A DNA stretch of 49,231 nt from NCBI GenBank assembly GCA_964362625.1, contig CAYIFA010000002.1:1-49231 (forward strand), written 5' to 3'. This document shows positions 6,308 through 49,117 of the stretch, in pieces. The position numbers were made by a program, and so were the translations under genes. The notes beneath the pieces were generated by a model. The model was given only the letters and a program-made list of their open reading frames with translations. It searched no databases and was not told the DNA's origin. Position 1 is the stretch's first letter; every line of letters begins with the position of its first letter. This DNA is from an uncultured Candidatus Saccharibacteria bacterium. GTDB lineage: Bacteria > Patescibacteriota > Minisyncoccia > 1-14-0-10-42-19.

Positions 6308-6320
6308 ATTAAAAAATCGC

Positions 6321-8355: not shown

Positions 8356-8365
8356 TGTTTAGTGG

Positions 8366-9016: not shown

Positions 9017-9107
9017 TTTAGCTCTCCTTTCCGGACGCATTGTCCAAGGAGCTCTATAGACTTTTTATATTATAGATTAATTTTTGTCAATATGTTGTAG
9101 TCGCCCA

Positions 9108-10268: not shown

Positions 10269-10286
10269 GATTCGATTATACTCATC

Positions 10287-10354
10287 ATGACCCTGCCGTT
10301 CGAGGCCCTGATGGGGCCCTCAGGCCATTGCAGGGAGTAATATCGAAGGGTCAT
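10287..10354. other. GC-rich imperfect long hairpin in the intergenic space between two co-oriented minus-strand genes
   Basis: ATGACCCT (10287-10294) pairs with AGGGTCAT (10347-10354). The inner pairs are CCTGC/GCAGG and GAGGCCC/GGGCCCTC. The 3-prime arm overlaps the TGA stop of the 744-aa gene, and no U-tract follows. Confidence 0.5.
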
Positions 10355-13630: not shown

Positions 13631-13644
13631 ATAACTCTGGTTTT

Positions 13645-15318: not shown

Positions 15319-15330
15319 TAGGAATTAAGT

Positions 15331-31944: not shown

Positions 31945-32946
31945 ATGGTCAAAAACAATAAAACCGCCCTCATAACCGGCATTACCGGCCAGGACGGCTC
32001 TTACCTTGCTGAATTTCTGCTTGAAAAAGGCTACAAAGTTTTTGGGTTGGAAAGACGTATCAGCCACAAGCATTACGAGAATATCGGGCATTTGCTGGTA
32101 CCGAAAAAGAAAATAACTCTTTTGTCGGGGGATTTGCTCGACGAAGCTTCGTTGGTGCACGCCCTTCGCGAAGCAAAGCCGCGGGAAGTTTATAATCTCG
32201 CCGCCCAATCTTTTGTTGCCGACTCCTGGAAACAACCGATATTTACCGGAGACGTAACTGCCCTCGGAGCATTAAGAATGCTTGAGGCAATCCGGCAAGT
32301 TGATCCAAAAATTAAATATTATCAGGCCTCCAGTTCTGAAATGTTCGGCAAAGTCAGCGAGACCCTGCAAAACGAAAAAACCCATTTTTACCCGCGGAGC
32401 CCTTACGGCGCGGCCAAACTTTATGCGCACTGGATAACGGTTAATTACCGCGAATCATACGGGCTTTTTACCGTATCCGGGATTCTTTTTAACCATGAAA
32501 GTCCGCGCCGCGGTTTGGAATTTGTTACGAGAAAAATTACCAATGCCGCCGCTAAGATTAAATTAGGTTTAGCCAAAGATCTAAAACTCGGAAATCTTGA
32601 AGCAAGGCGCGATTGGGGGTTTGCCGGAGACTATGTGCAAGCCATGTGGCAAATGCTTCAGCAAAAAGCACCAAGGGATTATGTTATCGCCACCGGTCAG
32701 ACTCATAGCGTTCGCGAGTTTGTCGAAGAAGCATTTGGCCATTTGGGCTTGGATTGGAAAAAGTATGTAAAAACGGACAAACAGTTCTTGCGGCCAGCTG
32801 AAGTTGACAATCTCCGCGGCGATTCAACTCTCGCCAGGCGCGAACTTAGGTGGACGCCAAAAGTCGGTTTCAAAGAACTCGTGCGGATAATGGTTGATTC
32901 TGATTTGAAGCGATTATCCGAGACAAGGCAAGGTCAAATCACGTGA
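31945..32946 (+). CDS. gmd: GDP-mannose 4,6-dehydratase
   Basis: [53 protein letters not shown] and [10 protein letters not shown]. Confidence 0.9.
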
Positions 32947-34154
32947 TTAAAAGGAGAACCAAAAAAATCGGCGTCGGCGGAGCGGTGATTACTCCATACG
33001 CTAAACAGTTGGTGAATAAGGTGCTGGATTCCGGCCGGATTTCTTACGGCCCATATTTGCGAAAATTTGAGGAAGATTTTGCAAAATTGTGCCATCGTAA
33101 ATTTGCCATTTCGTCCAATAGCGGCACCAGTTCTTTGCAAGTTGCATTACATGCGCTAAAGGACTTGGATGGGTGGAAAGATGGAGATGAAGTTTTGGTG
33201 CCAAGCGTAACTTTCGTCGCTACTGCCAATGTCGTGGTGCAAAATAAGCTTGCCCCAGTGTTTGTTGACGTGGACCCAAAAACATACAATGTTAATCCGG
33301 GAATTATAGAAGAAAAAATAACTAAGCGCACACGGGCGATAATGCCGGTGCATTTGATGGGGGTATCCGCGGACATGGCGCGGATAATGAAAATAGCGAG
33401 TAAGCATAAACTTCGGGTCATAGAGGATTCATGCGAGGCAGTCGGCGTAAATTACCGCGGACGTCCGGTAGGATCGTTTGGCGATATCGCCTGCTTTTCC
33501 ACGTATATGGCGCATTTAGTTACTACCGGCGTTGGCGGATTTTCGGTTACCAATGATCCGAAACTTGCGGTTTTAATGCGCAGTTTGGTTAATCACGGCC
33601 GTGATTCGATCTATGTGGCTATGGACAATGACCACGGCCTAAGAGGGCATGCCAGATTTCACATGGCTAACGCCCGATTTTCATTTATTAACGTCGGATA
33701 TAGTTATCGGGTGACCGAATTGGAAGGAGCGCTGGGACTCGCCGAGCTCAAGAGTTTGCGGAAAAACATCGCGCTTAGGCAAAAAACCGCAGGTAGTTTG
33801 ATACGGGCGTTAGGTCCGTTTGAAAAATATCTGCAGCTGCCAAGCTGGCCGGATCACGCCGAGCATGCTTTTATGCTCTTCCCGATTGTAATCAGAGATG
33901 GCGCCGGATTTTCGCGCGATGAACTTATACGTCATTTAGAAGACTATAATGTTGAAACTCGATACCTAATGCCGCTTATTAACCAGCCAATCTATAAAAA
34001 AATGTTCGGCGATTTGGAAAAACATTATCCGGTCGCGCGCCATTTAAACCAGAACGGCTTCTACATCGGCTGCCACCCGGAAATGACTAAACGCGATTTG
34101 GAATATGTCGCCGCAGTGTTTAGAGATTTTTTCGTAAAAAGAGGTTTTGCATGA
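32943..34154 (+). CDS. DegT/DnrJ/EryC1-family sugar-modifying enzyme, His-variant; likely a ColD-like GDP-4-keto-6-deoxymannose 3-dehydratase
   Basis: The fold-type I sugar aminotransferase layout is present. The block [15 protein letters not shown] has His (codon 33513-33515, residue 191) where aminotransferases carry the PLP Lys (FSFHAIK). The GTG start overlaps the gmd stop. Confidence 0.65.
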
Positions 34155-35341
34155 AAATCGCGATTATTGTACGGCGGATGAATGTGCGAGGCGGGACACA
34201 GCGGCAGGCGTTGGGATTGGCGCGGGAATTAAAAAAACTGGGGCATCAAGTTAAGCTTTATACTTTCGTATACTCTCCGGGCGACTGCTTCCCGGAATTT
34301 TTGAGCGGGCTTGAAGTTGTTTCGTTGAATTATTACCCGCGATACTCTAATTATTTTATAAATTATTTTTCAGAAAACCGGGCTTGCCGCGCGCTCGCCG
34401 CGATGATTGACCGCGATACTGAAGTTTTGAATCCGCACGACCAGGTGGCTTATCGTGTTGCCGCGTATTTTAAAAAAGACGTTAAAAACATTCCGTCGGT
34501 TTGGATGTCAAATGATTTACCGACCAAGCAGTTTTCGTTTTGGAAAGAGAGCCAAATCAACCCAGATCATTCGGCGCCGCTCATCAAAAAAATCATATGG
34601 CGGTTGATTGACTGGTACGAAATTAACAAATTTATTAAGCCGCAAAACGCCATTACGGTTTTAGACAACATGAACAAAGATCATATGCGGAAGTTCATCG
34701 GCAAAGACGCAATGGTGGTGAGGAGCGGTATTGATTTGAACGAATTTAGTTTTGTTAAGCGATCACCGTTACAAAATAAATCCGCAAAAATTCTCGCCAC
34801 CGGGATATTTTTCCCGCACCGCCGGTTTGAAGACGCGATTTCGGCCGCAAAAATATTGCGGGATGGCGGGTATGATGTTGAATTAAATATTGTCGGCGAC
34901 CATCAAAGCGATAAATCGTACTATCAAAAATTGGCTAAACTTGTGAAAGATTGCGGTTTGGAAAGTGCCGTAAATTTCCTCGGAAAAGTTTCTGACGAGG
35001 AACTGCGCCGCCAATACGCCGCTAATGATATTTTCGTTTTTCCGAACCACATGCAAACCTGGGGTTTGGTGGTCATGGAAGCAATGGCTACCGGCCTTCC
35101 GGTGGTTGTTTCAAAAACTACTGGCGCGGCCGAAGTCCTAAAAAACGGCGAAAACGCTATTTTGGTAAATCCCAAATCGCCGGATGAAGTCGCTGACGCC
35201 ATCCGGCAACTTATTGATGACACGAACCTTTATTCGAGACTTTCCCAAAACGGCCGCAAATTTGTTGAAGAAAATATTTCGTGGTCTAAATACGCCCAAA
35301 GGATGTCAGCGGCGTTTGAGGCAGCGCGAAAATTAATATAG
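34151..35341 (+). CDS. Glycosyltransferase family 4
   Basis: NHMQTWGLVVMEAMATGLPVVVSKTTGAAEVLKNGENAILV. Its start overlaps the upstream stop by 4 nt. Confidence 0.85.
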   Translation: MKIAIIVRRMNVRGGTQRQALGLARELKKLGHQVKLYTFVYSPGDCFPEFLSGLEVVSLNYYPRYSNYFINYFSENRACRALAAMIDRDTEVLNPHDQVAYRVAAYFKKDVKNIPSVWMSNDLPTKQFSFWKESQINPDHSAPLIKKIIWRLIDWYEINKFIKPQNAITVLDNMNKDHMRKFIGKDAMVVRSGIDLNEFSFVKRSPLQNKSAKILATGIFFPHRRFEDAISAAKILRDGGYDVELNIVGDHQSDKSYYQKLAKLVKDCGLESAVNFLGKVSDEELRRQYAANDIFVFPNHMQTWGLVVMEAMATGLPVVVSKTTGAAEVLKNGENAILVNPKSPDEVADAIRQLIDDTNLYSRLSQNGRKFVEENISWSKYAQRMSAAFEAARKLI

Positions 35342-35354: not shown

Positions 35355-36140
35355 ATGCAGAATAAAGACCTTAAGACCATTTATGAAAAAGTTTATAAAA
35401 AAGGGGAGGGCACTCATTATTCCAAGCTTTTATTTTCGAAAAACAAAGTTTCCATAGATAAGAAAGCGGTTCTTGGCGAGATAAACTGGAAGGGCAAAAT
35501 AGTGCTTGATGTCGGGTGCGGCACCGGCGAACTGGTTAATATTCTTGCCGGTCTCGGCGCGAAAATCGTTCTCGGAGTTGATTATTCTGCGAGCGCCATC
35601 GCCATTGCCAAGAGATTGTATTCGAGAAAAAACATTTCATTCAAATGCCTAAATGCCAATGAAGTAGAAGGAAAATATGACGTAATTACTTCGCTTGGCG
35701 CCATTGAACATTTTGATAATCCTTTCGGGGTCGTTAGAAGATTCCGGCAAATGCTCCGGCCGGGCGGTTCAATTATAATCGTGTCTCCTAACTGGTCTAA
35801 CCCGCGCGGCTACATGCTTATGACTCTCAAGCTGTTATTTGATGCCAGAATCACTTTAGCCGACCTGCATTATTTTACTCCGCTTGATTTTAAACATTGG
35901 GCAGACTTACTCGGGATGCGACTAAAGTGGCGCACTATTGATTACGATTGGGCTATGGGCCGTCGGTTAGTTAGTGATTTTAAGCGCAGGATTCCGCGCG
36001 TTATTCGTGATTCAAAATTGCCGAAGAACAAAAAAAGAATCGGTCAGTTTATCAAATGGATCGAACAAACAGTAATCAAGATTGAGCACCCGCAAAAATA
36101 CAGCGGTGCCATCGGAATATATCATTTTCGAAAACGTTGA
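35355..36140 (+). CDS. Class I SAM-dependent methyltransferase
   Basis: VLDVGCGTGELVNILAGLGAKIVLGVDYSASAIAIAK, GAIEHFDNP and LRPGGSIIIVSPN. Confidence 0.8.
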   Translation: MQNKDLKTIYEKVYKKGEGTHYSKLLFSKNKVSIDKKAVLGEINWKGKIVLDVGCGTGELVNILAGLGAKIVLGVDYSASAIAIAKRLYSRKNISFKCLNANEVEGKYDVITSLGAIEHFDNPFGVVRRFRQMLRPGGSIIIVSPNWSNPRGYMLMTLKLLFDARITLADLHYFTPLDFKHWADLLGMRLKWRTIDYDWAMGRRLVSDFKRRIPRVIRDSKLPKNKKRIGQFIKWIEQTVIKIEHPQKYSGAIGIYHFRKR

Positions 36141-38156
36141 TTATTCCGGCATTTTGTAGATTATGACGCCATTTTGATCGTATGTTTTCTCGAGAGTTCC
36201 GTCGAAAACGCTGTTTGGGTCGGCGCTTAACTTTTGCTCGCGTGGACCAAAATACAGATAATCCAGTCGGTAAGGCGGTTGGGCCAGCTTTTCGTTCAAG
36301 AAAGCGGAGTATTCGGATGACTTTTGCATTTGTGTTTCTTTCGGGATACCGAGCGGTACCTCGCTTATAAACGAACTGCCCGGTTTCGTGTTATGGTAGC
36401 GCATGTGGAACAAGTAATAAGCGGCGCTTTGGTCAAGATCTGGTTTGAAAAACGGATAAAGTTCGTTGGCGTTGGCCGCTGACTTGTTAAATCCGCCAGT
36501 ATCGCCTGATGCAATAAGTCCTCTAAATTTTTCCGGAGTAATGCCGTAAATTTTATTTATGAAAAAAAACCTGCCCCATATTTCTTCATTGGAGGCAATC
36601 GTGCTGTATCCGTTCGGCGTGAAAACTTTATTGTGAGTATAGAGTTGAATGCGACTCATGGTGCTAAATGACGAACTGCCGAGCACTGAATATTTTGGGG
36701 TGTTTTCGTTAAGCCATCGGTAGCTAGCCATCTCTCCGGAAGGTATGGTTACGTTTTTATATTCCTCTACGAATTTGTATTGAGCATAGGCCCCATTGGC
36801 CAAAACTCCGGCAATCAAAATTACGCCAAGAATGTTCCACGCCAAATGCGGGGATGCCGGCCGGTATTTTTTGTTTAAAAACATAGCCAAGGCCGTAGTT
36901 AGCATGAATAGTGCCGCGAGAATTGCAGTAAATTTTACGCTATTCGCCTCGGTAATGACTGCTTTGGTAATGAGTATGCCGGAAAGCGCCATAGCAACAA
37001 CGATTATTAAATTCGGCGCAAATAAGCGCCGGAAATTTAGGAATAGCCAATAAGCAATAGCGGCAAAAGTTAAGCAAAGAACCGGCAAAGTCGGCTTAAA
37101 CCAATGATCCGGCTGGGCGTTAAACCCGGTAATCAATTGGAGGTTATAAACTAAAAATATCGGCATGAGCAGGGATATCAGTAAGTAAGATATTTTTGGG
37201 TAAAATTTTCTGAAATAAAAAAGGATGGCAATGAGCAGGAAGTGAAGGGCGTAAGCGAAAGACGGCAGCATTTCGAAATTAACGTATCGTCCGATTTCCG
37301 GGCCATGTCTTTCAAAGATATCTTGGAAATGAGCAAGGCGTGACAGATTGATGGAATTGACCCAGTGCGGAATAGACATCAACAATCCGCCGGAAAAAAT
37401 TATAAGCATTTTTTTGAAAGACAAAAAATCTTTTTTGGCGAGAAACATTACTAAAACAAAGGCCATTGCCGCCGAAAAGTATGTCCAGTAATAGAAATAC
37501 GAATAAAAAGTCAGCCCGTAAAAAAATGCCGCGAGCCACGGCGAGATTCGGTCGTTTCTGGTTATGGAGCGGACTGTGAAATAAAGCAAGAGCAAATAAA
37601 TCGGCACAGTCACTTGCGGATCTTCTATCCGCGAAAACGCAAGCCCTTTTGTTTTGAATATAATCGTGATGATGGCGGCTTGCAAGTATTTGAGCGCCGG
37701 CGGCATAAATGAGGCGAGCCGCGGCAAGAAAATGTAAAAAACTGAGCCAACCAATGATAAAAATTTTATCCCGGTGGCTTCAAAAAGAATTAAATAAAAA
37801 ATTAAAAATATCATGGCCGGGAAAATAAAATCGCCGGTAATAAAAGCCGTTTCCATCGAACCGGTTATTTTAGCCAGCCATCCCATTACGAGCGGGCTTA
37901 AAAACGGAGTGACGTAAATTAGCCGATCTTTATATTCAAAAACATTGAAGTCACCGACTATAAACTTTCCGAGTCTTGCCGCCTCGGCTTTAGGCGCGTT
38001 AAGCAAGGCTTCGTCGCCGTTTATTAATATTGGATGATAATCCAGCCCTAGGCTCGTGAGATGCGACCATATAAAAAAATGATGGCCGCCGTAAATTACT
38101 GCCACAAGTAGCATCAAGAACAGCGCGGCTTTGTGACTTTTTACAAACTCAGGCAT
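36141..38156 (-). CDS. Large polytopic membrane protein with a C-terminal extracytoplasmic domain; possible GT-C-type transferase or polymerase
   Basis: There are at least 12 hydrophobic segments and a soluble tail of about 220 aa. The track ORF extends to 38285 but would overlap the divergent gene at 38200. I place the start at M44 (MPEFVKSHKAALFLMLLV, ATG 38154-38156). Confidence 0.55.
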   Translation of the reverse strand: MPEFVKSHKAALFLMLLVAVIYGGHHFFIWSHLTSLGLDYHPILINGDEALLNAPKAEAARLGKFIVGDFNVFEYKDRLIYVTPFLSPLVMGWLAKITGSMETAFITGDFIFPAMIFLIFYLILFEATGIKFLSLVGSVFYIFLPRLASFMPPALKYLQAAIITIIFKTKGLAFSRIEDPQVTVPIYLLLLYFTVRSITRNDRISPWLAAFFYGLTFYSYFYYWTYFSAAMAFVLVMFLAKKDFLSFKKMLIIFSGGLLMSIPHWVNSINLSRLAHFQDIFERHGPEIGRYVNFEMLPSFAYALHFLLIAILFYFRKFYPKISYLLISLLMPIFLVYNLQLITGFNAQPDHWFKPTLPVLCLTFAAIAYWLFLNFRRLFAPNLIIVVAMALSGILITKAVITEANSVKFTAILAALFMLTTALAMFLNKKYRPASPHLAWNILGVILIAGVLANGAYAQYKFVEEYKNVTIPSGEMASYRWLNENTPKYSVLGSSSFSTMSRIQLYTHNKVFTPNGYSTIASNEEIWGRFFFINKIYGITPEKFRGLIASGDTGGFNKSAANANELYPFFKPDLDQSAAYYLFHMRYHNTKPGSSFISEVPLGIPKETQMQKSSEYSAFLNEKLAQPPYRLDYLYFGPREQKLSADPNSVFDGTLEKTYDQNGVIIYKMPE

Positions 38157-38199: not shown

Positions 38200-39576
38200 A
38201 TGAAAACGCTCATGGTTCCAATAGCCAACAGCTTTTTCGTCCGTAACTTTATGCGTACGGATGTTTTTGGGGTGCTTAAAAGCAAAGAAGATCTGCGAAT
38301 AGTATTTCTCGCGCCGGAAGAAAAAATAGAATATTACAAATCCGAATTTCCCCACCCGAATGTTTTTTTCGAAAAACTTCCAGAGTTTAAAGACCTTGCT
38401 TCCGAACGATTTTTCCGATTCCTCGAAAGTTCCAGTATCCACACCAATACTGTGACTATGCTCCAGCGCTGGCAATTTTTAAGGGCAAAGCATCCGTCTT
38501 TTTTTCTGCGGCTGGTTATTTATCTGGTATCGCGCTTATTTTGGCATTTGGGCAGGTTTCACCGGTGGCGCGTCGTGATAAGAAAATCTTATTTAGCCGT
38601 TGCCAGCAGTTTTTTTGGCGGACTTTTTGATAAATGGCGGCCCGATCTGGTTTTTGCGGCCAACATGATTTATGTCGAAGACCATTTATTGCTTCGCGAG
38701 GCGAAGAAGCGCGGCATAAAGACGCTCGGCATGGCTTTGAGCTGGGATAACCTTTACAGCAAATCATTGATCCGTGTGCCGCCCGATCATTTGATGGTCC
38801 ATACTGACACCATTCGCGATCAAACAATCGCGCTTGGAGATTATCCGCCGGAAAAAATAACCGTGACCGGTATACCGCAATATGACGATTATTTTTTAAA
38901 AAACCGGCTGTTGAGCCGCGACGAATTCGTCAGGTCCATTGGTGGAGATCCGGCCAAAAAACTTATTGTCTACGCTTTTTCCGGCAAAGCCGGCTTGCAT
39001 ATCGATTTTGATATTGTCAAAATTATTCACGAATTTGTTAAGGACGGTAAAATAGCCGAGAGTGTAAATGTTTTCTTGCGGCCATATCCGCGGTATGATT
39101 TTCCGGAAGAAAAAGTAAGATGGATTTACCGCGAGTTAGGTTTTCTCGGACGCCCGCCGCTAAAGCACATCGGTTCGTCCAAGGACAGTTGGGAATTTGA
39201 CGAGGAATCGCTTGATCTTTTAGCCAATACCTTGGCTCATGCGGATTTGGTAATAACTATGTATTCCACATTCTTTATTGAGGCGGCGATATTTGACAAG
39301 CCGCTTATCGCGATTGCCTTTGACGGGTTTAAAAAGTTGGATTATTGGAATTCGGCTGAAAGATTTTTTGAATGGGATCACTTGAAGGAAATCGGCGAGC
39401 TCGGCGGCATTTGGCGCGTTAAGAGCAGGGAAGAGTTGCTGGCAGCAATTAATTTTTATCTGGCCAATCCCGGACATCTGAAAGATGGCCGGAAAAAGAT
39501 TGTTTTACGCCAAACCCAATTCAGAGATGGACAATCTGCCAAGCGGGTAGCCGATGCCATTTTAAAATTTTTATGA
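38200..39576 (+). CDS. Uncharacterised GT-B-like protein, paralog 1 of 4
   Basis: Blocks shared with the other three paralogs are PDLVFAANM...LLREAKKRGIKTLGMALSWDNLYSKSLIRV, KKLIVYAFSG and ADLVITMYSTFFIEAAIFDKPLIAIAFDG. The last block resembles the TagB/TagF xITDYSS...D..kP motif only at pattern level. Confidence 0.6.
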   Translation: MKTLMVPIANSFFVRNFMRTDVFGVLKSKEDLRIVFLAPEEKIEYYKSEFPHPNVFFEKLPEFKDLASERFFRFLESSSIHTNTVTMLQRWQFLRAKHPSFFLRLVIYLVSRLFWHLGRFHRWRVVIRKSYLAVASSFFGGLFDKWRPDLVFAANMIYVEDHLLLREAKKRGIKTLGMALSWDNLYSKSLIRVPPDHLMVHTDTIRDQTIALGDYPPEKITVTGIPQYDDYFLKNRLLSRDEFVRSIGGDPAKKLIVYAFSGKAGLHIDFDIVKIIHEFVKDGKIAESVNVFLRPYPRYDFPEEKVRWIYRELGFLGRPPLKHIGSSKDSWEFDEESLDLLANTLAHADLVITMYSTFFIEAAIFDKPLIAIAFDGFKKLDYWNSAERFFEWDHLKEIGELGGIWRVKSREELLAAINFYLANPGHLKDGRKKIVLRQTQFRDGQSAKRVADAILKFL

Positions 39577-40988
39577 GAGAAACAAAAATAAAAACCATCT
39601 TTACCCCGCTTTATTCCTTACCGGTCTTTCGGAATCTTTTTTTATTTCCCGGCTGTTTTTTTGACCAGGTTTGCGAATTGGTTCAAACCGGCGCGCCACA
39701 TCGATTTGTGTTTATCGTGCCGCAAAAAAGTTTTCAGAAATACGCTCCGATTTTTTCCGGTAAATTGAGCGATAGAATTATTTTGGAGAGCATCCCGGAT
39801 CCGGAGAAGATTGGGACCCTCGGTAAGATGTTCAGATTTTTTTATTCATATCTGATTTACACCAGCACCACAAAGTTGCTCGCGACCATGGGCACCCGGC
39901 CTGATGAAATGCCGCCGGGCAGCCGGCACTTGTGGCCGTTTAAGACTTTTATTGCTAACACCTTTGGGCGTTCACGGTTTATTAAAACCCAGATTATTCC
40001 GTTGGTTTTTAATGCGATTTTCGACAAAAATCATTTTTCGGTACTCTTTGATAAATACCATCCCGATGCCGTCTTTCTGCCGCATATGCTCGGCTGGTTT
40101 GATAATCTGCTTTTGAGAGAGGCAAAGAACCGTGGCGTAAAAACTATCGGCATGGCTGCCAACTGGGATCACATTGATAAATATTTTATTCCCCTGCAAG
40201 CTGATTTGCTTTTGGCGCAAAACGAACTGATTAAAAGCGCGGCGATCCGCGATCAGGCCTATCGGGAAAACCGAATTCGCTTAACCGGTTATCCGCATTT
40301 TGATTTTATTTGGGACAAAAAATATTTGATGGAGCGAAGCGATTTTTTGGCATCTACTCACGTCCGGCTGCCATCCGGCGCGAAATATTTTCTTTACATT
40401 TCCGGAAGCGTTTATTGTCCGGATGAGCCGGATGTAATCGAAGAAGTTCTAAATTGGATAAGCGCCGGGCGATTCGGTCCGGATGTTTATATGGTTATTC
40501 GGCCATATCTCGGGGGCCGTTTTAAGGATCGTGATTTTGATGACAATAAATTCGCCGGCTTTGCCAAGCATCCTAAGGTCCGTATGGCCAGCCGTGAATC
40601 GTGGAAAGCAGTGGAGGATACCATCCCCCTTTTAAATTTTATGGCGCATGCGAGCGTCGTAATGTCGGCTTTTTCCACCGCGGCGCTTGAGGCATCGCTT
40701 TTTGACCGGCCGCTAGTCGGCATCGGCTTTGACGGCCACCACATAAGGCCGCTCTACCGTTCAGTCCGGCGCTTTGAAAATTTCACGCATTTTCAGGATA
40801 TTTTTAAGACCGGCGCGGTTAAGGTAGTCAGAGGCTTTGATGAGCTTTACGCGGCGCTTAATGCTTATTTGGAAAATCCTGAATTGGATGCCGACAAGCG
40901 CGAGTTAATGCGTAAAACCATGTGTTATAAACTCGATGGCCAGTCCAGCCAACGGATTTTGGGTAATATACTAAACATGTTTGAATAG
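39573..40988 (+). CDS. Uncharacterised GT-B-like protein, paralog 2 of 4
   Basis: PDAVFLPHMLGWFDNLLLREAKNRGVKTIGMAANWDH and ASVVMSAFSTAALEASLFDRPLVGIGFDG. It overlaps paralog 1 by 4 nt. Confidence 0.6.
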   Translation: MRETKIKTIFTPLYSLPVFRNLFLFPGCFFDQVCELVQTGAPHRFVFIVPQKSFQKYAPIFSGKLSDRIILESIPDPEKIGTLGKMFRFFYSYLIYTSTTKLLATMGTRPDEMPPGSRHLWPFKTFIANTFGRSRFIKTQIIPLVFNAIFDKNHFSVLFDKYHPDAVFLPHMLGWFDNLLLREAKNRGVKTIGMAANWDHIDKYFIPLQADLLLAQNELIKSAAIRDQAYRENRIRLTGYPHFDFIWDKKYLMERSDFLASTHVRLPSGAKYFLYISGSVYCPDEPDVIEEVLNWISAGRFGPDVYMVIRPYLGGRFKDRDFDDNKFAGFAKHPKVRMASRESWKAVEDTIPLLNFMAHASVVMSAFSTAALEASLFDRPLVGIGFDGHHIRPLYRSVRRFENFTHFQDIFKTGAVKVVRGFDELYAALNAYLENPELDADKRELMRKTMCYKLDGQSSQRILGNILNMFE

Positions 40989-40994
40989 TTTGAT

Positions 40995-42392
40995 ATGCCG
41001 CAAAAAACGATTTTTCTTTCAATATACAACGGCATCCGGTCCAAGAATTTTTTTCACACCGACATTTACAAGACATTGGTTGCCGATAAAAATGTCCGGC
41101 TGGTCATCGTTGTGCCCTCGGTCAAACTGGATTATTACCGGAAGACTTTTGCCGAACCCAATGTTGTTTTTGAAGCGCTCGACCTAAAAGGCGAGCCGTG
41201 GTTTGGCCGGTTGCTCGCCGAACTCGGGTTTAATTTGCTTGACACCAAAACAATCCGGTTTAAACAGGAGCTGGAATACTGGCGGTACAAAAATTATCCG
41301 CGATTTTTGATCAAGCGGGCGATAAACCGCGTTTTGGGTCCTTTGCCCGGCATACGCGAGCTGGTCAGATTTTTGGATAGATTTGTCGACACGGATCAGA
41401 GAGTAAACGCGCTTCTTGATAAATATAAACCGGATTTGGTGCTGGCTCCGGATATTGTTTTTCCGCTTGACCGGATTTTTTTGCGCTCGGCCAAACGAAA
41501 GGGCATACGCACGGTTGGCTTAACTCGCTCATGGGACAATCTTACTTCCAAAGGCGTAATCCAGATTTTGCCGGATAAACTTATTTTGCACACTACCCGC
41601 ATGAAAAATCAGGCGGTGAAACTGGTTGGGATGTCCGAGAAAGATATTTTTGTTTCCGGTCCTCCGGATTACGATAAATATTTTAGGCCGTTAAAAACCA
41701 GCCGCGAAGAATTTTTAAGATCTCTTGGCATCCCAACCGACCGCAAAATCATCCTTTTCGCGCCATTTTATGATAACTATGTAGGTTCGGCAGTAATAAT
41801 GATGAATGCTTTTACCCGCGCGATAAAGGAGGGGCGTTTGCCTAAAAATGCCCATATTGTTTCCCGCTATCGGCCGGCTACCCCGGAAATCCCGGGGAAT
41901 CTTATTGAATCCAGCGATAATCTAACCATAACTAGGCCGTGTAGCTTATATTTTGAAGTAAAAGATAAGACCCTCGCGCCAACTAAGGATTGGGAATTTT
42001 CGGCGAGTGACGTAGAATTACTCGCCAACTCGTTGGCATATAGTGATGTGATTATTAATACTTATTCGACGCTCGCTATTGACGCTTCACCTTTTGATAA
42101 GCCGGTAATTGGGGTGAGGTTCGACGCTGATCCAAGTACCCCGCCGGAACATAGCGTATTGAAAATCGGCGACTTGCATGACCATTATAGGGAACTCGAA
42201 GAAATTGGCGGAGTGCGTCTGGTAAAAAACATGGACGAATTGATCGATGCCGTTAATTTTTATTTTGAACACCCCGAAGCCGACCGCGGAGGCCGAAAAC
42301 TCATCCGCGAAACCCAAATTGAATTTACCGATGGTCAAAACGGCAAACGGGCCGCCGAATTTATTTTACAGGAGTTGCGCGTACGCTCGTAA
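40995..42392 (+). CDS. Uncharacterised GT-B-like protein, paralog 3 of 4
   Basis: PDLVLAPDIVFPLDRIFLRSAKRKGIRTVGLTRSWDNLTSKGVIQI and SDVIINTYSTLAIDASPFDKPVIGVRFD. Confidence 0.6.
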   Translation: MPQKTIFLSIYNGIRSKNFFHTDIYKTLVADKNVRLVIVVPSVKLDYYRKTFAEPNVVFEALDLKGEPWFGRLLAELGFNLLDTKTIRFKQELEYWRYKNYPRFLIKRAINRVLGPLPGIRELVRFLDRFVDTDQRVNALLDKYKPDLVLAPDIVFPLDRIFLRSAKRKGIRTVGLTRSWDNLTSKGVIQILPDKLILHTTRMKNQAVKLVGMSEKDIFVSGPPDYDKYFRPLKTSREEFLRSLGIPTDRKIILFAPFYDNYVGSAVIMMNAFTRAIKEGRLPKNAHIVSRYRPATPEIPGNLIESSDNLTITRPCSLYFEVKDKTLAPTKDWEFSASDVELLANSLAYSDVIINTYSTLAIDASPFDKPVIGVRFDADPSTPPEHSVLKIGDLHDHYRELEEIGGVRLVKNMDELIDAVNFYFEHPEADRGGRKLIRETQIEFTDGQNGKRAAEFILQELRVRS

Positions 42393-42427
42393 ACGGCCAC
42401 CGAGAATAGTAAAATAGTCGTTCGCTC

Positions 42428-42455
42428 TTGATTTCTGGGAGTGAGTTTGTATACT
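42428..42455 (+). promoter_or_regulatory. Candidate sigma-70-type promoter for the orphan gene at 42492
   Basis: TTGATT (42428-42433), a 16-nt spacer and TATACT (42450-42455). A strong RBS, GAGGAGG, sits just upstream of the ATG. Confidence 0.35.
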
Positions 42456-42491
42456 AGATTTAGAGTTCTATAGAAAAATGAGGAGGTAAAG

Positions 42492-42872
42492 ATGAGGGTA
42501 TTTAAACCGACACGAAAAAATTTGCATCCAAGAATTATCCGCACGATGGAAAGAATCAAGAAATGGCACGAAGAAAATGGTTATAGTGACGATTATTCTG
42601 TTGACGATATTCTTCAAAAACAATTCGTTGCGATAAAAGCAGGCGCTTTCACAATTCTGGTTCAAGACGCTAGCGAAAAGGAATATCACGGAAACGCAAG
42701 TGTCGATGTTTATAACAGCAAAGGCGTTATTGTGGACAACAAAGTATTGTATAATCCAGTCAAGGGACATAGAGTTCCGAAAAGGGCTTTTATTGGAACG
42801 CCCATAGTTGACGGTTCAAGGCCGATGCAATACAAGCCAGTTCGCAGGAAAGATCCTATCTTTATTCCGTAG
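42492..42872 (+). CDS. Hypothetical protein (orphan) inserted in the glycan locus
   Basis: A 126-aa ORF with a strong RBS (AAATGAGGAGGTAAAGATG), its own candidate promoter and its own terminator. No family was recognised. Confidence 0.6.
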   Translation: MRVFKPTRKNLHPRIIRTMERIKKWHEENGYSDDYSVDDILQKQFVAIKAGAFTILVQDASEKEYHGNASVDVYNSKGVIVDNKVLYNPVKGHRVPKRAFIGTPIVDGSRPMQYKPVRRKDPIFIP

Positions 42873-42890
42873 ACGAGCCTAACTCCAAAG

Positions 42891-42915
42891 AGCCGACTAC
42901 ATGTCGGCTTATTGT
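42891..42915 (+). terminator. Rho-independent terminator
   Basis: AGCCGAC TACAT GTCGGCT followed by TATTGTTAT. Confidence 0.6.
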
Positions 42916-42919
42916 TATC

Positions 42920-42948
42920 TAGACAAGATTAGCGAACGGTGATAAGAT
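42920..42948 (+). promoter_or_regulatory. Candidate promoter for the HicB/HicA-like pair
   Basis: TAGACA (42920-42925), a 17-nt spacer and an extended -10 TGaTAAGAT (42940-42948). It overlaps the GTG start proposed in the ORF track, which argues for the downstream ATG. Confidence 0.35.
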
Positions 42949-43022
42949 TGCTGAAATTAACTGTGAATAACCGCCATAAACTATATAAGCGTTATTTGTT
43001 ATTATTTATAAATAATCCTTTC

Positions 43023-43346
43023 ATGTTAAATTTTTTAAGTCGCGTTTTCGGTAGCTCTCGATCCGTTAGTAGAGCTGACATTAAAACTAAATACGGCATT
43101 CCGGATACTATAAATCTATCTTTTGAGATAACTGACGGCAAATTTATAATTACTTCACCAGATCTTCCCGGTTTTATTACTCAAGCGCGAGATCAAAAAG
43201 AACTTCTGGAAATGGTGGACGATGCCGTCTTAACTTATTATGATGTTCCGGAAAACGAGGCGGTTGGGGTTTTTAACGTTATTCACATCGATGGCCACGG
43301 AACTATAATGAGCGAGAGGGCCCATCCGGTTTTGGCGACCAGATAA
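43023..43346 (+). CDS. HicB-like (UPF0150) antitoxin
   Basis: FEITDGKFIITSPDLPGFITQARDQKELLEMVDDAVLTYYDV fits the HicB N-terminal fold pattern. I prefer the ATG at 43023 (M29 of the track ORF 42939..43346). Confidence 0.6.
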   Translation: MLNFLSRVFGSSRSVSRADIKTKYGIPDTINLSFEITDGKFIITSPDLPGFITQARDQKELLEMVDDAVLTYYDVPENEAVGVFNVIHIDGHGTIMSERAHPVLATR

Positions 43347-43348
43347 TA

Positions 43349-43612
43349 ATGTCCGGAGAAATTAATTATAATTTTACTCCAAGGGAATGTGTCCGATCCT
43401 TAAATAGGATCGGATTCGTCAATAAATCAAAGCGCGGCAAGCATTTTAAATTTTATCCGCCAGAGCGTGTAAAAAATAAAATTCCTCCGGGGAGGCCGCA
43501 GTTCATTATGATCCCCAATCATAGAAATTTTTGGATTCAGCATAAAATTATAAGAGAATTACTGGAAATGGGCGGAGACGAACTTGTAAATGATTTTGTA
43601 AAAAATCTTTAG
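43349..43612 (+). CDS. HicA-like mRNA interferase toxin
   Basis: TPRECVRSLNRIGFVNKSKRGKHFKFYPP...FIMIPNHRNFWIQHKIIRELLEMGG shows the HicA/YcfA pattern, including the conserved G-x-H. It starts 2 nt after the antitoxin stop. Confidence 0.65.
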   Translation: MSGEINYNFTPRECVRSLNRIGFVNKSKRGKHFKFYPPERVKNKIPPGRPQFIMIPNHRNFWIQHKIIRELLEMGGDELVNDFVKNL

Positions 43613-43628
43613 TCACCCCATCCTTACA

Positions 43629-44996
43629 ATGGATAGCAATATTTCTTTATCCGAATCATTCGTTCGCGGAGAAGCCACCTCGCGCTTTTGGGGAATTTTC
43701 GCAAAAGCTGCCAGCATCGGCAGCGCGTTTTTGATTCTGGCCTCGCTTACTCCGTACCAATACGGCGTATGGTATTTGTTTTTATCGATTTATGAAATCT
43801 TTTCGCAAATTATATCGCTGGGTTCCGGCGTCATAAAAAACGAAGTAATGCGATTTATCGGCGAAAATGATTATGGACGGGCCAAGCGTCTTTTTGGTGA
43901 ATACCACGTTGCGCGTCTTATTTTGAGCGCGTTTTTGTGGGCGGTCTTCTTTTTCGGCGCTCCATTCTTGGCATTTCGTTATCAGCAAGATTTTATTCTA
44001 ATCATCCGTAGCGCCTCATTTTTGTTTCTTTTGGAATTTCTTGCATCCTTCGCGCAATCACTTCTAGCTATGCAATTTCGTTTTGGCGCTTCAGTCAGAG
44101 TTTCGACATACGCCAAGATAACGCAGTTCATAATTCTTCTCGGCTATTATTTTTATTCTTATATTGGCGTTAAAGAAGTCATGTTCTCGCTGGTGTTTTC
44201 ACTGGCGGCCGCCATCATCTTCATTTTGCCCACCGCAATTCACGAATGGCAACCGTGGCGCGCGCGGGTTGCCGCAGATAAAAATCTGTTTTTCAAAGTT
44301 ATGCTGGGGCCGGGTAAGTGGGACATTTCACGTTCTTTTATTTCGCACGTAGCATCCAGAGTCCAGCCGTTCATAATAAAAATATTTCTTAGCACCGAAA
44401 TGGTCGGGCTTTATGGAGTCGCGAAGTCTTTGGTTGAATTGTTGTTGAGCTTTCTTGCGGTTGATACATTAAGCACTTTAGTTCCACGCGAGATAAACGA
44501 GCGCAGCAAAATGCGTTCTATATTTGTTTTCGGTTCAAAGTATTTGGTGATTACCAGTTTAATTTTTGTTGCCGGTGGGGTAATCGGCACCTTAGTTCTT
44601 TTCAGTTTGTTTTTTGAGAATTATCTTCCGGCATTGCCGCTTTTCTATTTGCTGGTGTTGATGCTTCCGGTCCAGTCGTTTGGGCAAATGGTCGATGTTT
44701 TTTTGGTTGCGTGGCGTAAACAAAAATTTACCTTTGTTCGTTCGGTATCGAGATCCGCCTTATGGCTCTCACTGCTTCTTTTCTTGATTCCGCATTACGG
44801 CCTTTGGGGAGCAATATCGGCGGAATTGTCGGCCGTATTAATTTCGGCCATTTGGAGCTATTTTTATCTGCTTCGTCTTGAGCCGACATTTCATCTAAAC
44901 GCCAGAGAGATTTTTTCTTTCGGGGCGGAGGATCGGCTAATAAGAGATATTTTTTTCAATAATTTTTCGGCTATTTTCAGATTCATTAGGCGCTAA
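43629..44996 (+). CDS. Wzx-like oligosaccharide flippase (MOP superfamily)
   Basis: 455 aa with about 12-14 TM segments. Size and topology are typical of polysaccharide flippases, and the gene lies within the glycan locus. Confidence 0.65.
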   Translation: MDSNISLSESFVRGEATSRFWGIFAKAASIGSAFLILASLTPYQYGVWYLFLSIYEIFSQIISLGSGVIKNEVMRFIGENDYGRAKRLFGEYHVARLILSAFLWAVFFFGAPFLAFRYQQDFILIIRSASFLFLLEFLASFAQSLLAMQFRFGASVRVSTYAKITQFIILLGYYFYSYIGVKEVMFSLVFSLAAAIIFILPTAIHEWQPWRARVAADKNLFFKVMLGPGKWDISRSFISHVASRVQPFIIKIFLSTEMVGLYGVAKSLVELLLSFLAVDTLSTLVPREINERSKMRSIFVFGSKYLVITSLIFVAGGVIGTLVLFSLFFENYLPALPLFYLLVLMLPVQSFGQMVDVFLVAWRKQKFTFVRSVSRSALWLSLLLFLIPHYGLWGAISAELSAVLISAIWSYFYLLRLEPTFHLNAREIFSFGAEDRLIRDIFFNNFSAIFRFIRR

Positions 44997-44997
44997 T

Positions 44998-46374
44998 ATG
45001 AAAACGATTTTTATCGCCAGTTTTCATCCTTATATCGCAAGAAATATCCTTGCCACCCGGGCTTTCGGGCTACTTGCAGAGCAAAGCGATTTGCGGTTTG
45101 TGATTTTTTGTCTTGGTTATAAAAAAGAATATTTCGAAAAGCGTTTTGGCCGCGAGAACGTCATAATCGAAGGCGTAAATTTTGATTTTCCTTCCAAGCG
45201 CCTATCATCGTTTGCTATGAAGCGGATCGCCAAATACGGTCTTTATTCCACTTCCACTCTGCTTGAACGGGAAAGAAAAAAAGCAATGGACGGCCGACTT
45301 TTGTATTATTTGGCAACGGCCTTGCTCGCGATTGCATTGTCTCGCCTTGGCTTTGTGAGTCGGTTAAAGAGAAGAATTATGCGGATAGCTGACTACCAAT
45401 TGTCAGACAAGGATCGTTACCGCATCTATTTTGAAAAATATCGTCCCGATCTGGTATGGGTTACTGATATTCAAAGTGAACGCGATGTAGAGCTTTTGCA
45501 TAATGCTAAGTTTTTCGGGGTAAAAACTATTGCCAATGTCCGTGCTTGGGATAATCTGACTTTGCACGGTTTGATCCGGGTTCTTCCAGATTTGCTTTTT
45601 GCGCAAGCGGAAAAAATCAAAGAGCAGGCGATAAAATATGATGATATGCCTTCGGAAAAGATAAGAGTGGTTGGCGTTGCTCACTATGACCGGTATATGG
45701 CCGAGCCGCATCAATCAAAAAATGGTTTTCTAACTTCGCTCGGCTTTTCCGGTATTCAATTATCTGACGAGAAGCCTCTTATTTTGTGGACTCCGATTGG
45801 AGATAATTATCTGGATTCAAATGATACCGATCTTTACACGTGTAAAGTTCTCGGGAGTATCCGCGCAAATGTTGTAGCGCGGTTTTCACCCACTATTCCC
45901 GTTAAACAAATGGAGGACGTAAGGCCGTCTGATAATATGGTTTTTGATCGGCCCGGAGTAAATTTCAGACCAGGTATAATAGGCGATCAGGAAATTTCTG
46001 AAGGAGATGATGAACGGTTGATTGAAGAAATTTATTTTAGCAATGTGGTGGTGTGCGGGCCAACTACCGTGGCGCTGGATGCGGTTTTTATGGATAAACC
46101 GGTAATTTTAATCGGCTTTCATCCGCGGCAGTTAAGCTATCTGGGGGGGATTTTGCGCCGATATGATTATGACCATTTTAAATTCGCTATTGAATGCGGG
46201 GCGTTTACGGTTGCCAAATCCAGAGAAGAACTTTTAAAATACATTGACGAGTATGCCAGAAATCCTCAAGCTAAATCCCGCGAGCGGGAAATATTGCGTA
46301 ATGCTTACTGCGGCCCGGCTGACGGCAAATCCGGAGAAAGAATTGCTAAAGTTGTTTTAAGTATGCTGAAGTAG
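44998..46374 (+). CDS. Uncharacterised GT-B-like protein, paralog 4 of 4
   Basis: PDLVWVTDIQSERDVELLHNAKFFGVKTIANVRAWDNLTLHGLIRV and SNVVVCGPTTVALDAVFMDKPVILIGFHP. It starts 1 nt after the flippase stop. Confidence 0.6.
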   Translation: MKTIFIASFHPYIARNILATRAFGLLAEQSDLRFVIFCLGYKKEYFEKRFGRENVIIEGVNFDFPSKRLSSFAMKRIAKYGLYSTSTLLERERKKAMDGRLLYYLATALLAIALSRLGFVSRLKRRIMRIADYQLSDKDRYRIYFEKYRPDLVWVTDIQSERDVELLHNAKFFGVKTIANVRAWDNLTLHGLIRVLPDLLFAQAEKIKEQAIKYDDMPSEKIRVVGVAHYDRYMAEPHQSKNGFLTSLGFSGIQLSDEKPLILWTPIGDNYLDSNDTDLYTCKVLGSIRANVVARFSPTIPVKQMEDVRPSDNMVFDRPGVNFRPGIIGDQEISEGDDERLIEEIYFSNVVVCGPTTVALDAVFMDKPVILIGFHPRQLSYLGGILRRYDYDHFKFAIECGAFTVAKSREELLKYIDEYARNPQAKSREREILRNAYCGPADGKSGERIAKVVLSMLK

Positions 46375-46421
46375 TTTTAAGCTATATTAATTGATGAATT
46401 TTTTGTAATATAACTTCCAGC

Positions 46422-47651
46422 ATGAGCAAATTATCGATGAAGTGCAGGGTCTGTGGCGGCCGGGTAAAAACCTTTTTCGATTTGGGCCGGCAGCCGCTCG
46501 CTAATTCGTTGCTGGAAAATCCGCGGCAATCAGAAAAAAAATATCCCTTAGCGTTAAATCATTGCAGTTATTGCGGTTCGGTACAATTGAATTATACCGT
46601 GAATCCAAAAACGCTTTTTTCAAAATATGTTTGGGTAACCGGTACTTCCTCGACCGCAAGAAGTTTTTCCAATGTCTTTTATAAGGAACTGGCTAGGCGC
46701 ACTCCGGATTCGCGAAAAAATTATGTGTTGGAAGTTGCATCCAACGACGGCACTTTTTTACTGCCGTTTTCAAAGCGCGGCTACAGAGTTATCGGTCTTG
46801 ACCCGGCCGCTAACATCGCTAAAATCGCGGAGAAAAACGGAGTACCAACTAAGGTCGCATTTTGGGGCCCAAAGGCCGCAAAAAAAATTTTGAATGAGAG
46901 GGGGCCTGCTCGTATAATATTTGCGAGAAACGTGCTCGCGCATGTCGCCAACCTTCAGGATTTTGTAAAAGGATTGGCGCTATGTTTGCACGAAGACGGA
47001 GTTTTGGCTATAGAGGTTCATTATGCCGCAAAAATACTTAAGGAATTGCAGTATGACTCCATTTATCATGAACATCTGTGCTATTTTACATTCGGACCGT
47101 TAGAGCGGCTGTTAAAGCAATCCGGCTTGTTTGTTTTTGATTTATTTGAAGGGCCAATCAGCGGCGGATCACTTATTGTTTACGCCTCCAAAAATCATCG
47201 CCCGGCAACCAAGGCAGTTCAAATTTTAAGGCAGCGCGAAATGAAAGCCGGGTTATATAGTTTCAAGACCTGGCAAAATTTTGGCTTACGCGCTTTTTTG
47301 CACCGTAAAGAGTTTTTATTAATGTTAAATAAAATAAAAGAGGGTAAAGTTCCGGTGGTTGGTTGGGGCGCTTCGGCCCGCAGCTCCACTTTGCTTAATT
47401 TCTGCGGAATCGGCCCCGATTCTATTCCGGTGATTGCTGACCAAAATAAGCTTAAGCAAGGTTTGTATACCGCCGGTACGCATATGCCGATAATTTCTCC
47501 AGAAGTGGCGATGAAACTTAACCCGAAATTCATCGTGCTTTTAGGTTGGAATTTTGCCGCGGAGATAATGGAAAGCTTAAAGCGTAGATTTCACTATCGC
47601 GGCAATTGCCTTGTTCCCTTGCCAAATAGACCTAAAGTAATAAAGCTATGA
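46422..47651 (+). CDS. NDP-hexose C-methyltransferase (TylCIII-like; zinc-ribbon, SAM MTase and C-terminal domains)
   Basis: CRVCGGRVKTFFDLGRQPLANSLL plus CSYCGSVQL form the N-terminal Cys4 motif. It also has VLEVASNDGTFL and VGWGASARSSTLLNFCG. Confidence 0.75.
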   Translation: MSKLSMKCRVCGGRVKTFFDLGRQPLANSLLENPRQSEKKYPLALNHCSYCGSVQLNYTVNPKTLFSKYVWVTGTSSTARSFSNVFYKELARRTPDSRKNYVLEVASNDGTFLLPFSKRGYRVIGLDPAANIAKIAEKNGVPTKVAFWGPKAAKKILNERGPARIIFARNVLAHVANLQDFVKGLALCLHEDGVLAIEVHYAAKILKELQYDSIYHEHLCYFTFGPLERLLKQSGLFVFDLFEGPISGGSLIVYASKNHRPATKAVQILRQREMKAGLYSFKTWQNFGLRAFLHRKEFLLMLNKIKEGKVPVVGWGASARSSTLLNFCGIGPDSIPVIADQNKLKQGLYTAGTHMPIISPEVAMKLNPKFIVLLGWNFAAEIMESLKRRFHYRGNCLVPLPNRPKVIKL

Positions 47652-48205: not shown

Positions 48206-49117
48206 GACGAGCCTGGTGAATAATTGAATCCATAACGCTGGCTTCGTCGACCACTCAAGAATTTCCATGATAGACGTCATATACGAATTAGCACGGAAAT
48301 TCGTGAGATGTCGAGTGCGTTCTTCACCAAGATTGAATACACGTTTCTTCCGAGAAAAGTATCTCTCAATCTCGGTTCGTTTCTTGTAAAGATCGGGATT
48401 CGCGGTTCGTTCCGCTCCGCGCAGGCGTCTATTTCTCTCGTTCCCATACGGAATGTTCCGCAAGGGAATCGCAATGTTGACTTTCTACCATTTTAAGAAA
48501 ACATCGTGCACAAAGTATTCGCTGTCATACCCTTTGTCGGCTGAAACTCCGGTGACGTTCCACCAACGAGGCGCTGCGCGTATCAACTGCGATCCCCATA
48601 CAATATCTGCTCGTGCTCCCGATGTTGCGTATTGTAAAAGAGGTAGTCGGGTATAGTAATCAATGATTTGATGAAGCTTGAAGCCGTTTTTCTCCTTGTA
48701 TCCGGAGTATGCCGAACCACGCTCATCATGCTTTGAATATGTTTCAACAAATGAAGAATCAAGAAGCAGAAGAAGCGGATTAGCGTTCTCGGCAATAGCG
48801 CGCGTAAGTGTTTTGAATATCCGGGAAAACCACATTGTGGCTATCGGTCGCTTTCTGAATTTAATGAAGGTTGAATAATCAATACCGCTTGCGCTTTCCA
48901 GATCACGGTAACTACAGCGCATCACTTGTTTGTACATGAGCCACCGAAACATGACTGTTTTGTCATATCCCTTTCTTCCTTTTGATGATGGTTTCAAGAA
49001 ACGAGTAAGCAGAACGTTCACTATTGGATGGTTGATCCATTGAAAACGAGCAAAAACCGGGATATGATGATACATACAAAGAAGATGCTTAATGGTAAAT
49101 GTTGTCGGTAACTCCAT
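48200..49117 (-). pseudogene. IS5/IS4-type DDE transposase interrupted by one in-frame TAG
   Basis: ORFs 48485..49117 and 48200..48463 are in the same frame (both start coordinates are 1 mod 3). The only stop between them is TAG (plus-strand cta, 48485-48487). The joined read is ...SADKGYDSEYFVHDVFLKW*KVNIAIPLRNIPYGNE...YKKRTEIERYFSRKKRVF, a contiguous DDE_Tnp_1 pattern. Confidence 0.75.

Follow-up and report, generated by a model that had tools for sequence, protein, structure and literature searches.

Four TagF-like GT-B paralogs arrayed with a Wzx-type flippase in a Patescibacteria glycan locus: candidates for transfer of CMP-activated ulosonic acids

TagF-like enzymes (TagF, TagB, TarF, TarL and Cps3D; Pfam family PF04464; PDB 3L7I, 8VA1 and 8QOY) need two histidines. 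H444 of TagF, equivalent to H300 of TarL, belongs to a Trp-His pair and acts as the base, H584 of TagF, equivalent to H433 of TarL, contacts the alpha-phosphate, and mutation of H300 or H433 in TarL abolishes activity (PMC10901376). In Tannerella forsythia, knockout of Tanf_01245 or TFUB4_00887 results in loss of the terminal pseudaminic acid (Pse) or legionaminic acid (Leg) derivative of the surface-layer (S-layer) O-glycan (PMC5420450). SpsB of Bacillus subtilis, a 'TagB/SpsB family' protein encoded in the sps operon beside a pathway for cytidine monophosphate (CMP)-activated legionaminic acid, is a proposed transferase as well. Bacterial sialyltransferases of the glycosyltransferase B (GT-B) type (CAZy families GT38, GT52 and GT80) have D/E-D/E-G and HP motifs, with an acidic base in the N-domain and, in the C-domain, a His-Pro that contacts the CMP phosphate. 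Here we describe four TagF-like GT-B paralogs (P1 to P4) arrayed with a Wzx-type flippase and a polytopic membrane protein in an ultra-small, uncultivated groundwater bacterium (Candidatus Saccharibacteria, Patescibacteria). The window, i.e. the whole stretch of DNA analysed, spans 49,231 nucleotides (positions 1 to 49,231 of contig CAYIFA010000002.1). For P3 and P4, glycosyl transfer from a CMP-activated ulosonic acid, of the nonulosonic acid type or that of 3-deoxy-D-manno-octulosonic acid (Kdo), appears the likelier activity; for P1 and P2 the same activity is suggested only tentatively. The array consists of the following genes:

36141-38156, minus strand: GT-C-like polytopic membrane protein, 671 amino acids from a conserved Met; open reading frame (ORF) open to 38285
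38200-39576, plus strand: P1, TagF-like GT-B transferase, 458 amino acids; PF04464 33.1 bits; motif R-P-Y-P
39573-40988, plus strand: P2, sister to P1, 471 amino acids; PF04464 31.2 bits; motif R-P-Y-L
40995-42392, plus strand: P3, 465 amino acids; PF04464 51.5 bits; motif R-Y-R-P
43629-44996, plus strand: Wzx-type flippase, 455 amino acids; PF01943 (Polysacc_synt) 40.2 bits, cutoff 28.2
44998-46374, plus strand: P4, 458 amino acids; PF04464 20.1 bits; motif R-F-S-P

P1 to P4 are pairwise 30-36% identical from end to end. Alignment of the four reveals 48 invariant columns, with blocks at the N-terminus (KT...N), PDxV, AK..G..T, WD, YST...A..D.P and the C-terminal DG...R. The original prediction, made from the DNA sequence, had described four ORFs with full-length homology, shared sequence blocks and tight gene junctions, and all of these are present: P1 and P2 overlap by 4 nt (ATGA), P2 and P3 are 6 nt apart, and a single nucleotide separates the flippase stop from the P4 start (TAA-T-ATG). 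The flippase that it had named scores above the Pfam threshold, and its large membrane protein is found on the minus strand, divergent from P1, with 43 bp between the conserved start at 38156 and the P1 start. The array is far beyond chance, and other genomes contain separate orthologs of each of the four paralogs.

The paralogs had been regarded as members of an unrecognised family with a pattern-level resemblance to TagB/TagF. The resemblance is borne out, the lack of recognition is not. The Glyphos_transf family (PF04464; gathering threshold 22.1 bits) matches their C-terminal half, with P1, P2 and P3 above the threshold and P4 just under it, and homologs are already annotated automatically as 'CDP-glycerol glycerophosphotransferase family protein' (NCBI; CDP, cytidine diphosphate) or 'TagB/SpsB family' (JGI/COG). 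Single-sequence and profile searches of the PDB sequences gave a weak C-terminal match with TarL only. A canonical profile was built from the TagF, Cps3D and TarL segments obtained in the PDB search and two modules of one S. epidermidis plasmid protein; hhalign matched the family profile with it at 97.9% probability (E 4e-13) over residues 3-453, that is, homology over the whole GT-B unit. The C-terminal motifs YST/DYSS, KP and DG..R are common to the family and TarL. The AlphaFold 2 (AF2) model of P3 (predicted local distance difference test score, pLDDT, 82.4; predicted TM-score 0.84) displays a GT-B fold with two Rossmann domains, as the original prediction had anticipated. Foldseek yielded 356 PDB matches at E <= 0.001, GT-B enzymes throughout among the matches listed, the best being GT-B structures at E about 1e-12. 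Given the full-length hhalign match and the GT-B model, the family is a divergent branch of the TagF-like (PF04464, 'TagB/SpsB') GT-B superfamily, and neither a new fold nor an unrecognised family. This TagF-like subfamily is uncharacterised, and the label 'glycerophosphotransferase' is probably wrong as to its chemistry.

In the P3 model, residues 69-129 of the N-domain form a four-helix insert, amphipathic and of basic character, in which no transmembrane segment is clearly recognisable. By analogy with the monotopic TagF and TarL, this insert probably holds the enzyme on the cytoplasmic face of the membrane; association via amphipathic helices is a likely common feature of both groups. A role as UDP-N-acetylglucosamine (UDP-GlcNAc) 2-epimerase was considered as well, the top Foldseek matches being enzymes of this kind, NeuC among them, and was rejected: no meaningful Epimerase_2 or WecB match was found, one relative matching wecB at only 18 bits against a cutoff of 210, and sequence homology to TagF and the occurrence of the genes in multi-copy arrays also disfavour it. 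This one relative carries the His-Pro motif discussed below.

The family differs from TagF and TarL in its catalytic residues. In the hhalign alignment the column of TagF H584/TarL H433 is occupied by Tyr in P1, Tyr in P2, Arg in P3 and Ser in P4, in agreement with the earlier remark that the HP histidine position varies; none of the four has an HP motif, a feature that further branches of the family do possess. An invariant Arg of the family aligns with TagF R582/TarL K431, two residues ahead of the second His position. A conserved N-domain His was not found among the 22 + 18 aligned members. The pair W180-D181, in the loop that follows strand 5 of the N-domain, shows no variation among the locus members (164 of 164), and the Asp none among the database domains (360 of 360). 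When family and TagF strands are paired in order (PDLV with HWVSN, IRTVGL with TYIQTW, DKLILH with WDYLIS), the family motif SWDNLxSK stands at the place of TagF TWHGTPLK, with retention of the Lys six residues on; hhalign, local or global, with full-length or N-domain profiles, gave no confident register for the TWHGTPLK segment. In the register drawn from strand order the family would thus have Trp-Asp where TagF and TarL have the Trp-His base. Further residues invariant in every copy bring the set to W180, D181, D227, R291, T359, D446, G447 and R452. Ordinary TagF-type transferases with intact catalytic residues, which would have removed the novelty claimed originally, are not what was found: the catalytic residues are not intact.

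The family is large. A profile search of the full library recovered 1,851 clusters (50% identity) at E <= 1e-30, tandem two-module proteins among them. Patescibacteria (Giovannoni-, Sung- and Vogelbacteria, Paceibacterota) have many homologs, with P1 orthologs of 50-66% identity across Parcubacteria. Scanning of species-representative genomes resulted in 79 loci, mostly of Patescibacteria, the other labels being Pirellulaceae/Planctomycetota, Gemmatimonadales, Acidobacteria and Myxococcota, with single labels for one gammaproteobacterial metagenome-assembled genome (MAG) and one Methanosarcinales MAG. The contig with the Methanosarcinales label (CAYYLN010000014.1, locus L063) carries one full-length member, for which horizontal transfer or a binning error is possible. 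Three copies are the usual number in loci of Patescibacteria (36 loci), genomes outside the candidate phyla radiation (CPR) have one, and four copies occur in three loci only, namely the window, L004 and L007. In a tree, the family members fall into orthogroups that are each marked by particular residues at the His position (motif residues 291-294):

P1-type: RPYP; sister to P2
P2-type: RPY[LQS]; clade support 1.0
P3-type: RYRP; clade support 1.0
P4-type: RFSP; clade support 0.999
LP orthogroup: R[LM]PP; CPR only
FP orthogroup: R[FY]PP; CPR only
Q orthogroup: RFQP; CPR only
His-type: RxHP; all non-CPR members and one CPR clade

None of the four window copies has the His, which is the commonest residue at this position (83 of 153 database representatives). 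The simplest reading is that Asp with His-Pro represents the ancestral state and that, during multiplication of the gene in Patescibacteria, independent replacements of the His took place. The paralogs diverged anciently and fall in separate orthogroups, in line with the proposal that they are functionally distinct. Several family members are fusions (P0123, P0127, P0135, P0172 and P0264), either tandem two-module proteins of ~900 amino acids or fusions with an S-adenosylmethionine (SAM) methyltransferase or a polysaccharide deacetylase; these domain fusions gave no clue to the donor. The methyltransferase fusions match the one-to-one alternation of paralog and methyltransferase genes observed in L001 and L006.

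Gene neighbourhoods point to the donor for part of the family. Genes were called in all loci (83, comprising 59 CPR and 24 non-CPR loci) and profiles were seeded from L004, L006 and L007. NeuB and/or CTP_transf_3, the latter a cytidylyltransferase of the CMP-Kdo/CMP-nonulosonate synthetase family, occurred at a distance of up to 10 kb in 36 of the 59 CPR loci and in 10 of the 24 others, many contigs being truncated; Pfam confirmed all 10 of the calls sampled. When all neighbour proteins were clustered without bias, SAM methyltransferases ranked highest (58 of the 83 loci), followed by NeuB/CTP_transf_3 (47), short-chain dehydrogenase/reductase (SDR) dehydratases/epimerases (47), glycosyltransferases of family GT4 (41), NeuC-type UDP-GlcNAc 2-epimerase (24), 2-hydroxyacid dehydrogenase (21), GT9 (20), Wzx (18), GT2 (16), DegT (14) and AsnB-type amidotransferase (14). 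A D-2-hydroxyacid dehydrogenase recurs beside NeuB, NeuC-like and CTP_transf_3 genes in loci of the H-LP-Q type (e.g. L019, L024, L030 and L037) and might be the source of an acyl group of glyceroyl or lactyl type on the nonulosonic acid, as in Pse5Am7Gra of T. forsythia.

The linkage differs between orthogroups. NeuB/CTP_transf_3 lies within 10 kb in 17 of 19 H-LP-Q trios and in 11 of 13 arrays with P3 or P4, the exceptions being the window and L012. The P3 orthogroup itself has these genes in 10 of the 12 loci holding it, and P3 orthologs directly abut NeuB in L013, L014 and L017. In L004, the closest syntenic relative of the window (P1 ortholog 66% identical), the gene order is gmd, DegT-like, GT4, methyltransferase, membrane protein, P1, P2, P3, Wzx, P4, CTP_transf_3, MsbA-like ABC transporter and then C-methyltransferase, with CTP_transf_3 only 28 nt from the P4 ortholog. 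CTP_transf_3 and the transporter thus stand between the last paralog and the tailoring genes, at 17000-19560 in L004 and likewise at 16982-19556 in L007. Only 48 bp (46375-46421) lie between P4 and the C-methyltransferase gene in the window, which therefore lost, or never had, CTP_transf_3 and the ABC transporter. As P1 and P2 form a pair that contrasts with P3 and P4 in linkage, the window array is seen as a composite of two orthogroup classes. P3 and P4 are strong candidates for ulosonic acid transfer.

The nearest curated relatives of the family support this reading for the donor. The best NCBIfam match of all four paralogs is NF046086, 'BFO_1060 family glycosyltransferase' (57.2, 33.8, 53.4 and 41.2 bits for P1 to P4), named after BFO_1060, of which Tanf_01245 and TFUB4_00887 are T. 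forsythia relatives. It is also the best curated match of the His-type members, 18 of 18 of which it matches (best E 1e-23); nine of these match TIGR04396, 'surface carbohydrate biosynthesis protein', and none of the 18 matches the TarB, TarF, TarL or TagF equivalog models. The T. forsythia enzymes have the same TagB-like GT-B scaffold, are encoded beside CMP-nonulosonate synthesis genes and act on a glycan that is lipid-assembled, flipped and placed on surface proteins. However, P1 to P4 score 34-57 bits against a cutoff of 200 and are hence non-members; the model has ~365 positions, and the window proteins align with it only from about residue 140 on, beyond the helical insert of ~60 residues. 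The T. forsythia proteins furthermore keep the C-terminal HP motif (PMC5420450), at a site occupied by Y, Y, R and S in P1 to P4, and occur as a single copy per strain, whereas the window has an array. With GT-B sialyltransferases the proposed mechanism is shared by analogy, the ancestral-type family members having kept the His-Pro, but no sequence similarity to GT38, GT52 or GT80 was detectable in any search made. Our literature search found nothing on nonulosonic acids in Patescibacteria or on TIGR04396, and nothing linking a glycerophosphotransferase with nonulosonic acids or sialyltransferases.

The combination of GT-B transferases with Wzx and a membrane glycosyltransferase-like protein in one cluster makes stepwise assembly of a surface glycan a sensible reading. 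The best explanation overall, to which we would give an even chance, is that these TagF-like GT-Bs build a lipid-linked glycan stepwise with CMP-ulosonic acids. Each enzyme is a single GT-B unit whose C-domain keeps the TagF-type nucleotide-binding motifs. D181 would act as base, and stabilisation of the CMP phosphate would fall to the invariant Arg together with the Tyr or Arg at the site of the lost His. The four enzymes would act in turn on an oligosaccharide linked to undecaprenyl phosphate, to which GT4 and GT9 enzymes and guanosine diphosphate (GDP)-derived deoxy sugars may contribute and which methyltransferases may modify; Wzx would flip the finished unit across the membrane, and the GT-C-like membrane protein would transfer it to its final acceptor. 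The original prediction had proposed a stepwise-built surface polymer, teichoic acid-like or glycan, made by a new transferase family. Its stepwise surface glycan is retained; the family is not new (PF04464), and with CMP-ulosonate genes as neighbours a teichoic acid-like product is not favoured.

Several observations weigh against ulosonic acid transfer. The window, over its whole 49 kb, contains no gene for NeuB or a CMP-sugar synthetase, and genome islands tend to gather glycan genes, so that co-location is suggestive and not proof. None of the four paralogs reaches NF046086 membership, all being far under its cutoff, and the histidine of the HP motif, kept by sialyltransferases and the T. 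forsythia enzymes, is missing from all four. Trp-Asp and Trp-His are equated on the grounds of strand order and motif pattern, hhalign having given no confident alignment of that segment. SpsB is an equivocal precedent, as Leg still reaches the spore surface of B. subtilis after deletion of spsB (PMC7439481). Finally, only 5 of 23 FP-P1-P2 trios have NeuB/CTP_transf_3 within 10 kb, and with P1/P2-type arrays so rarely near these genes, the donor of P1 and P2 may differ.

An alternative, most plausible for P1 and P2, is that the paralogs are ordinary Leloir glycosyltransferases. According to this explanation they use local nucleoside diphosphate (NDP)-sugars (GDP-3,6-dideoxy-, C-methyl- and 6-deoxyhexoses) and the NeuB link reflects island clustering. 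Besides gmd, the window encodes a dehydratase of the ColD type, a C-methyltransferase and an epimerase of the RmlC type, but only one GT4 occurs in the cluster. SDR, GT4, GT2 and methyltransferase genes accompany FP-P1-P2 arrays, and generic GT-B enzymes rank highest among the Foldseek matches. However, the conserved part of the proteins is the TagF-type C-domain, which binds cytidine nucleotides in TagF and TarL, the nearest curated family uses CMP-sugars, and the linkage to NeuB/CTP_transf_3 recurs in unrelated large-genome phyla, in the 10 of 24 loci mentioned above. For the array as a whole we consider Leloir activity doubtful. The database labels suggest instead polyol-phosphate transfer from CDP-glycerol or CDP-ribitol, yielding a teichoic acid-like phosphodiester polymer with Asp replacing the His base. 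PF04464 above threshold for three of the four, the full-length homology to TagF, TarL and Cps3D and the C-terminal motifs in common with TarL agree with such an activity, and Patescibacteria are thought to be monoderm, making wall polymers plausible. Against it, both histidines that are essential in TagB, TagF and TarL are missing from all four copies, the His-type members match no Tar/Tag equivalog, and the neighbours encode NeuB, CMP-synthetases and NeuC-type enzymes. Genes for CDP-polyol synthesis (TagD, TarI/TarJ) were not seen in the window, and the window proteins have no extra N-terminal polymerase domain. In the ~83 loci, a search with TagD-type sequence patterns, a weak negative, returned two doubtful HxGH ORFs, both lacking the second TagD-type motif, and no TarI/TarJ was found in related loci when screened by a weak N-terminal pattern. 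Polyol-phosphate transfer thus seems unlikely for the array, and P3 and P4 probably do not perform it.

Some of the His-less copies, e.g. P4, could also be dead scaffolds or acceptor-binding subunits beside an active partner. At the site equivalent to H584, P4 has Ser and other CPR orthogroups have Pro or Gln, and tandem two-module fusions exist; yet every copy keeps the other invariant residues from W180 through R452, and the orthogroups are old and well conserved, which makes loss of activity very improbable. Ulosonic acid transfer may, conversely, reach much further than the window. It can be speculated, though we would not bet on it, that the whole Trp-Asp branch (~1,850 clusters) represents a TagF phosphotransferase scaffold turned into a CMP-ulosonic acid glycosyltransferase, in which the His-Pro was replaced repeatedly in Patescibacteria by Tyr, Arg or other residues, with the four window enzymes adding different acidic keto-sugars in a row to form an oligo-ulosonate coat that is attached by a new GT-C resembling oligosaccharyltransferase (OST). 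The branch is spread over Patescibacteria, Planctomycetota, Gemmatimonadota, Acidobacteriota and others; specific to the window are four His-less copies, the absence of donor genes from the contig, the union of two orthogroup classes in one array and the adjoining OST-like GT-C.

This membrane protein has no Pfam or NCBIfam family match, and only 12 homologs were detectable. It has about 13 predicted helices followed by a C-terminal mixed (soluble) domain, and among its homologs D48-E49 is invariant in the first loop, after helix 1. Foldseek with its AF2 model (pLDDT 63.5, moderate confidence) gave STT3/PglB as best matches (E 5e-5 to 1e-3), then ArnT and DPY19. The WWDxG motif of STT3, PglB and AglB is not represented, there being no WWD in the sequence; a conserved S-Y-x-W-L-x-E-N-T-P is found at a comparable place after the last helix. 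Judging from the model, the protein may be a GT-C enzyme of an undescribed family acting on the flipped lipid-linked glycan. It occurs together with the paralogs in only 5 loci and is therefore not a core partner of the family.

To our knowledge, transferases for nonulosonic acids other than sialic acid have been identified in a handful of organisms, and no TagB-like one has been studied biochemically or structurally. If the proposed activity is right, a large mislabelled family supplies candidates for the missing nonulosonate transfer step in many uncultivated lineages, and shows how a phosphotransferase active site (His/His) was rebuilt for glycosyl transfer (Asp/Arg-Tyr). Patescibacteria live attached to host cells, and an acidic sugar coat assembled by three or four of these enzymes would be directly relevant to that interaction. 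The 'teichoic acid' deduced by annotation pipelines from these genes is probably wrong.

The remainder of the glycan cluster and the insert within it are as follows:

31945-32946, plus strand: gmd; TIGR01472 443 bits, above cutoff
32943-34154, plus strand: ColD/E1-type His-variant DegT enzyme (Pfam); Lys-to-His in the alignment to perosamine synthetase
34151-35341, plus strand: GT4 (Pfam)
35355-36140, plus strand: SAM methyltransferase (Pfam)
42393-43628, plus strand: insert of 1.2 kb that separates P3 and the flippase gene; three small ORFs (126, 135 and 87 amino acids)
46422-47651, plus strand: NDP-hexose C-methyltransferase-type protein; PF08484 and PF08421
47648-48205, plus strand: RmlC-type 3,5-epimerase; PF00908; TIGR01221 171.9 bits

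In the DegT enzyme a His replaces the lysine that binds pyridoxal phosphate (PLP), as seen when aligned with FGNKIITTGEGG of perosamine synthetase 3BN1. Since this variant is that of the ColD/E1 3-dehydratases, the probable product of the locus is a GDP-3,6-dideoxyhexose and not perosamine.

The insert at 42393-43628 looks like a small mobile cassette of the toxin-antitoxin type within the operon and stands outside the glycan machinery. In L004, P3 overlaps the flippase gene directly, without an insert. The 87-amino acid ORF is weakly HicA-like (E 4e-4). Just past the glycan cluster, at the contig end, a DDE transposase fragment (PF01609, DUF772) is located at 48485-49117 on the minus strand. 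A second carbohydrate block makes up the first third of the window (375-16455), encoding several GT4s (one of 744 amino acids), glycoside hydrolases GH57 and GH130, phosphorylase-like and amylo-1,6-glucosidase-like proteins, a PIG-L deacetylase, a major facilitator superfamily (MFS) transporter and a PMT_2-type GT-C protein.

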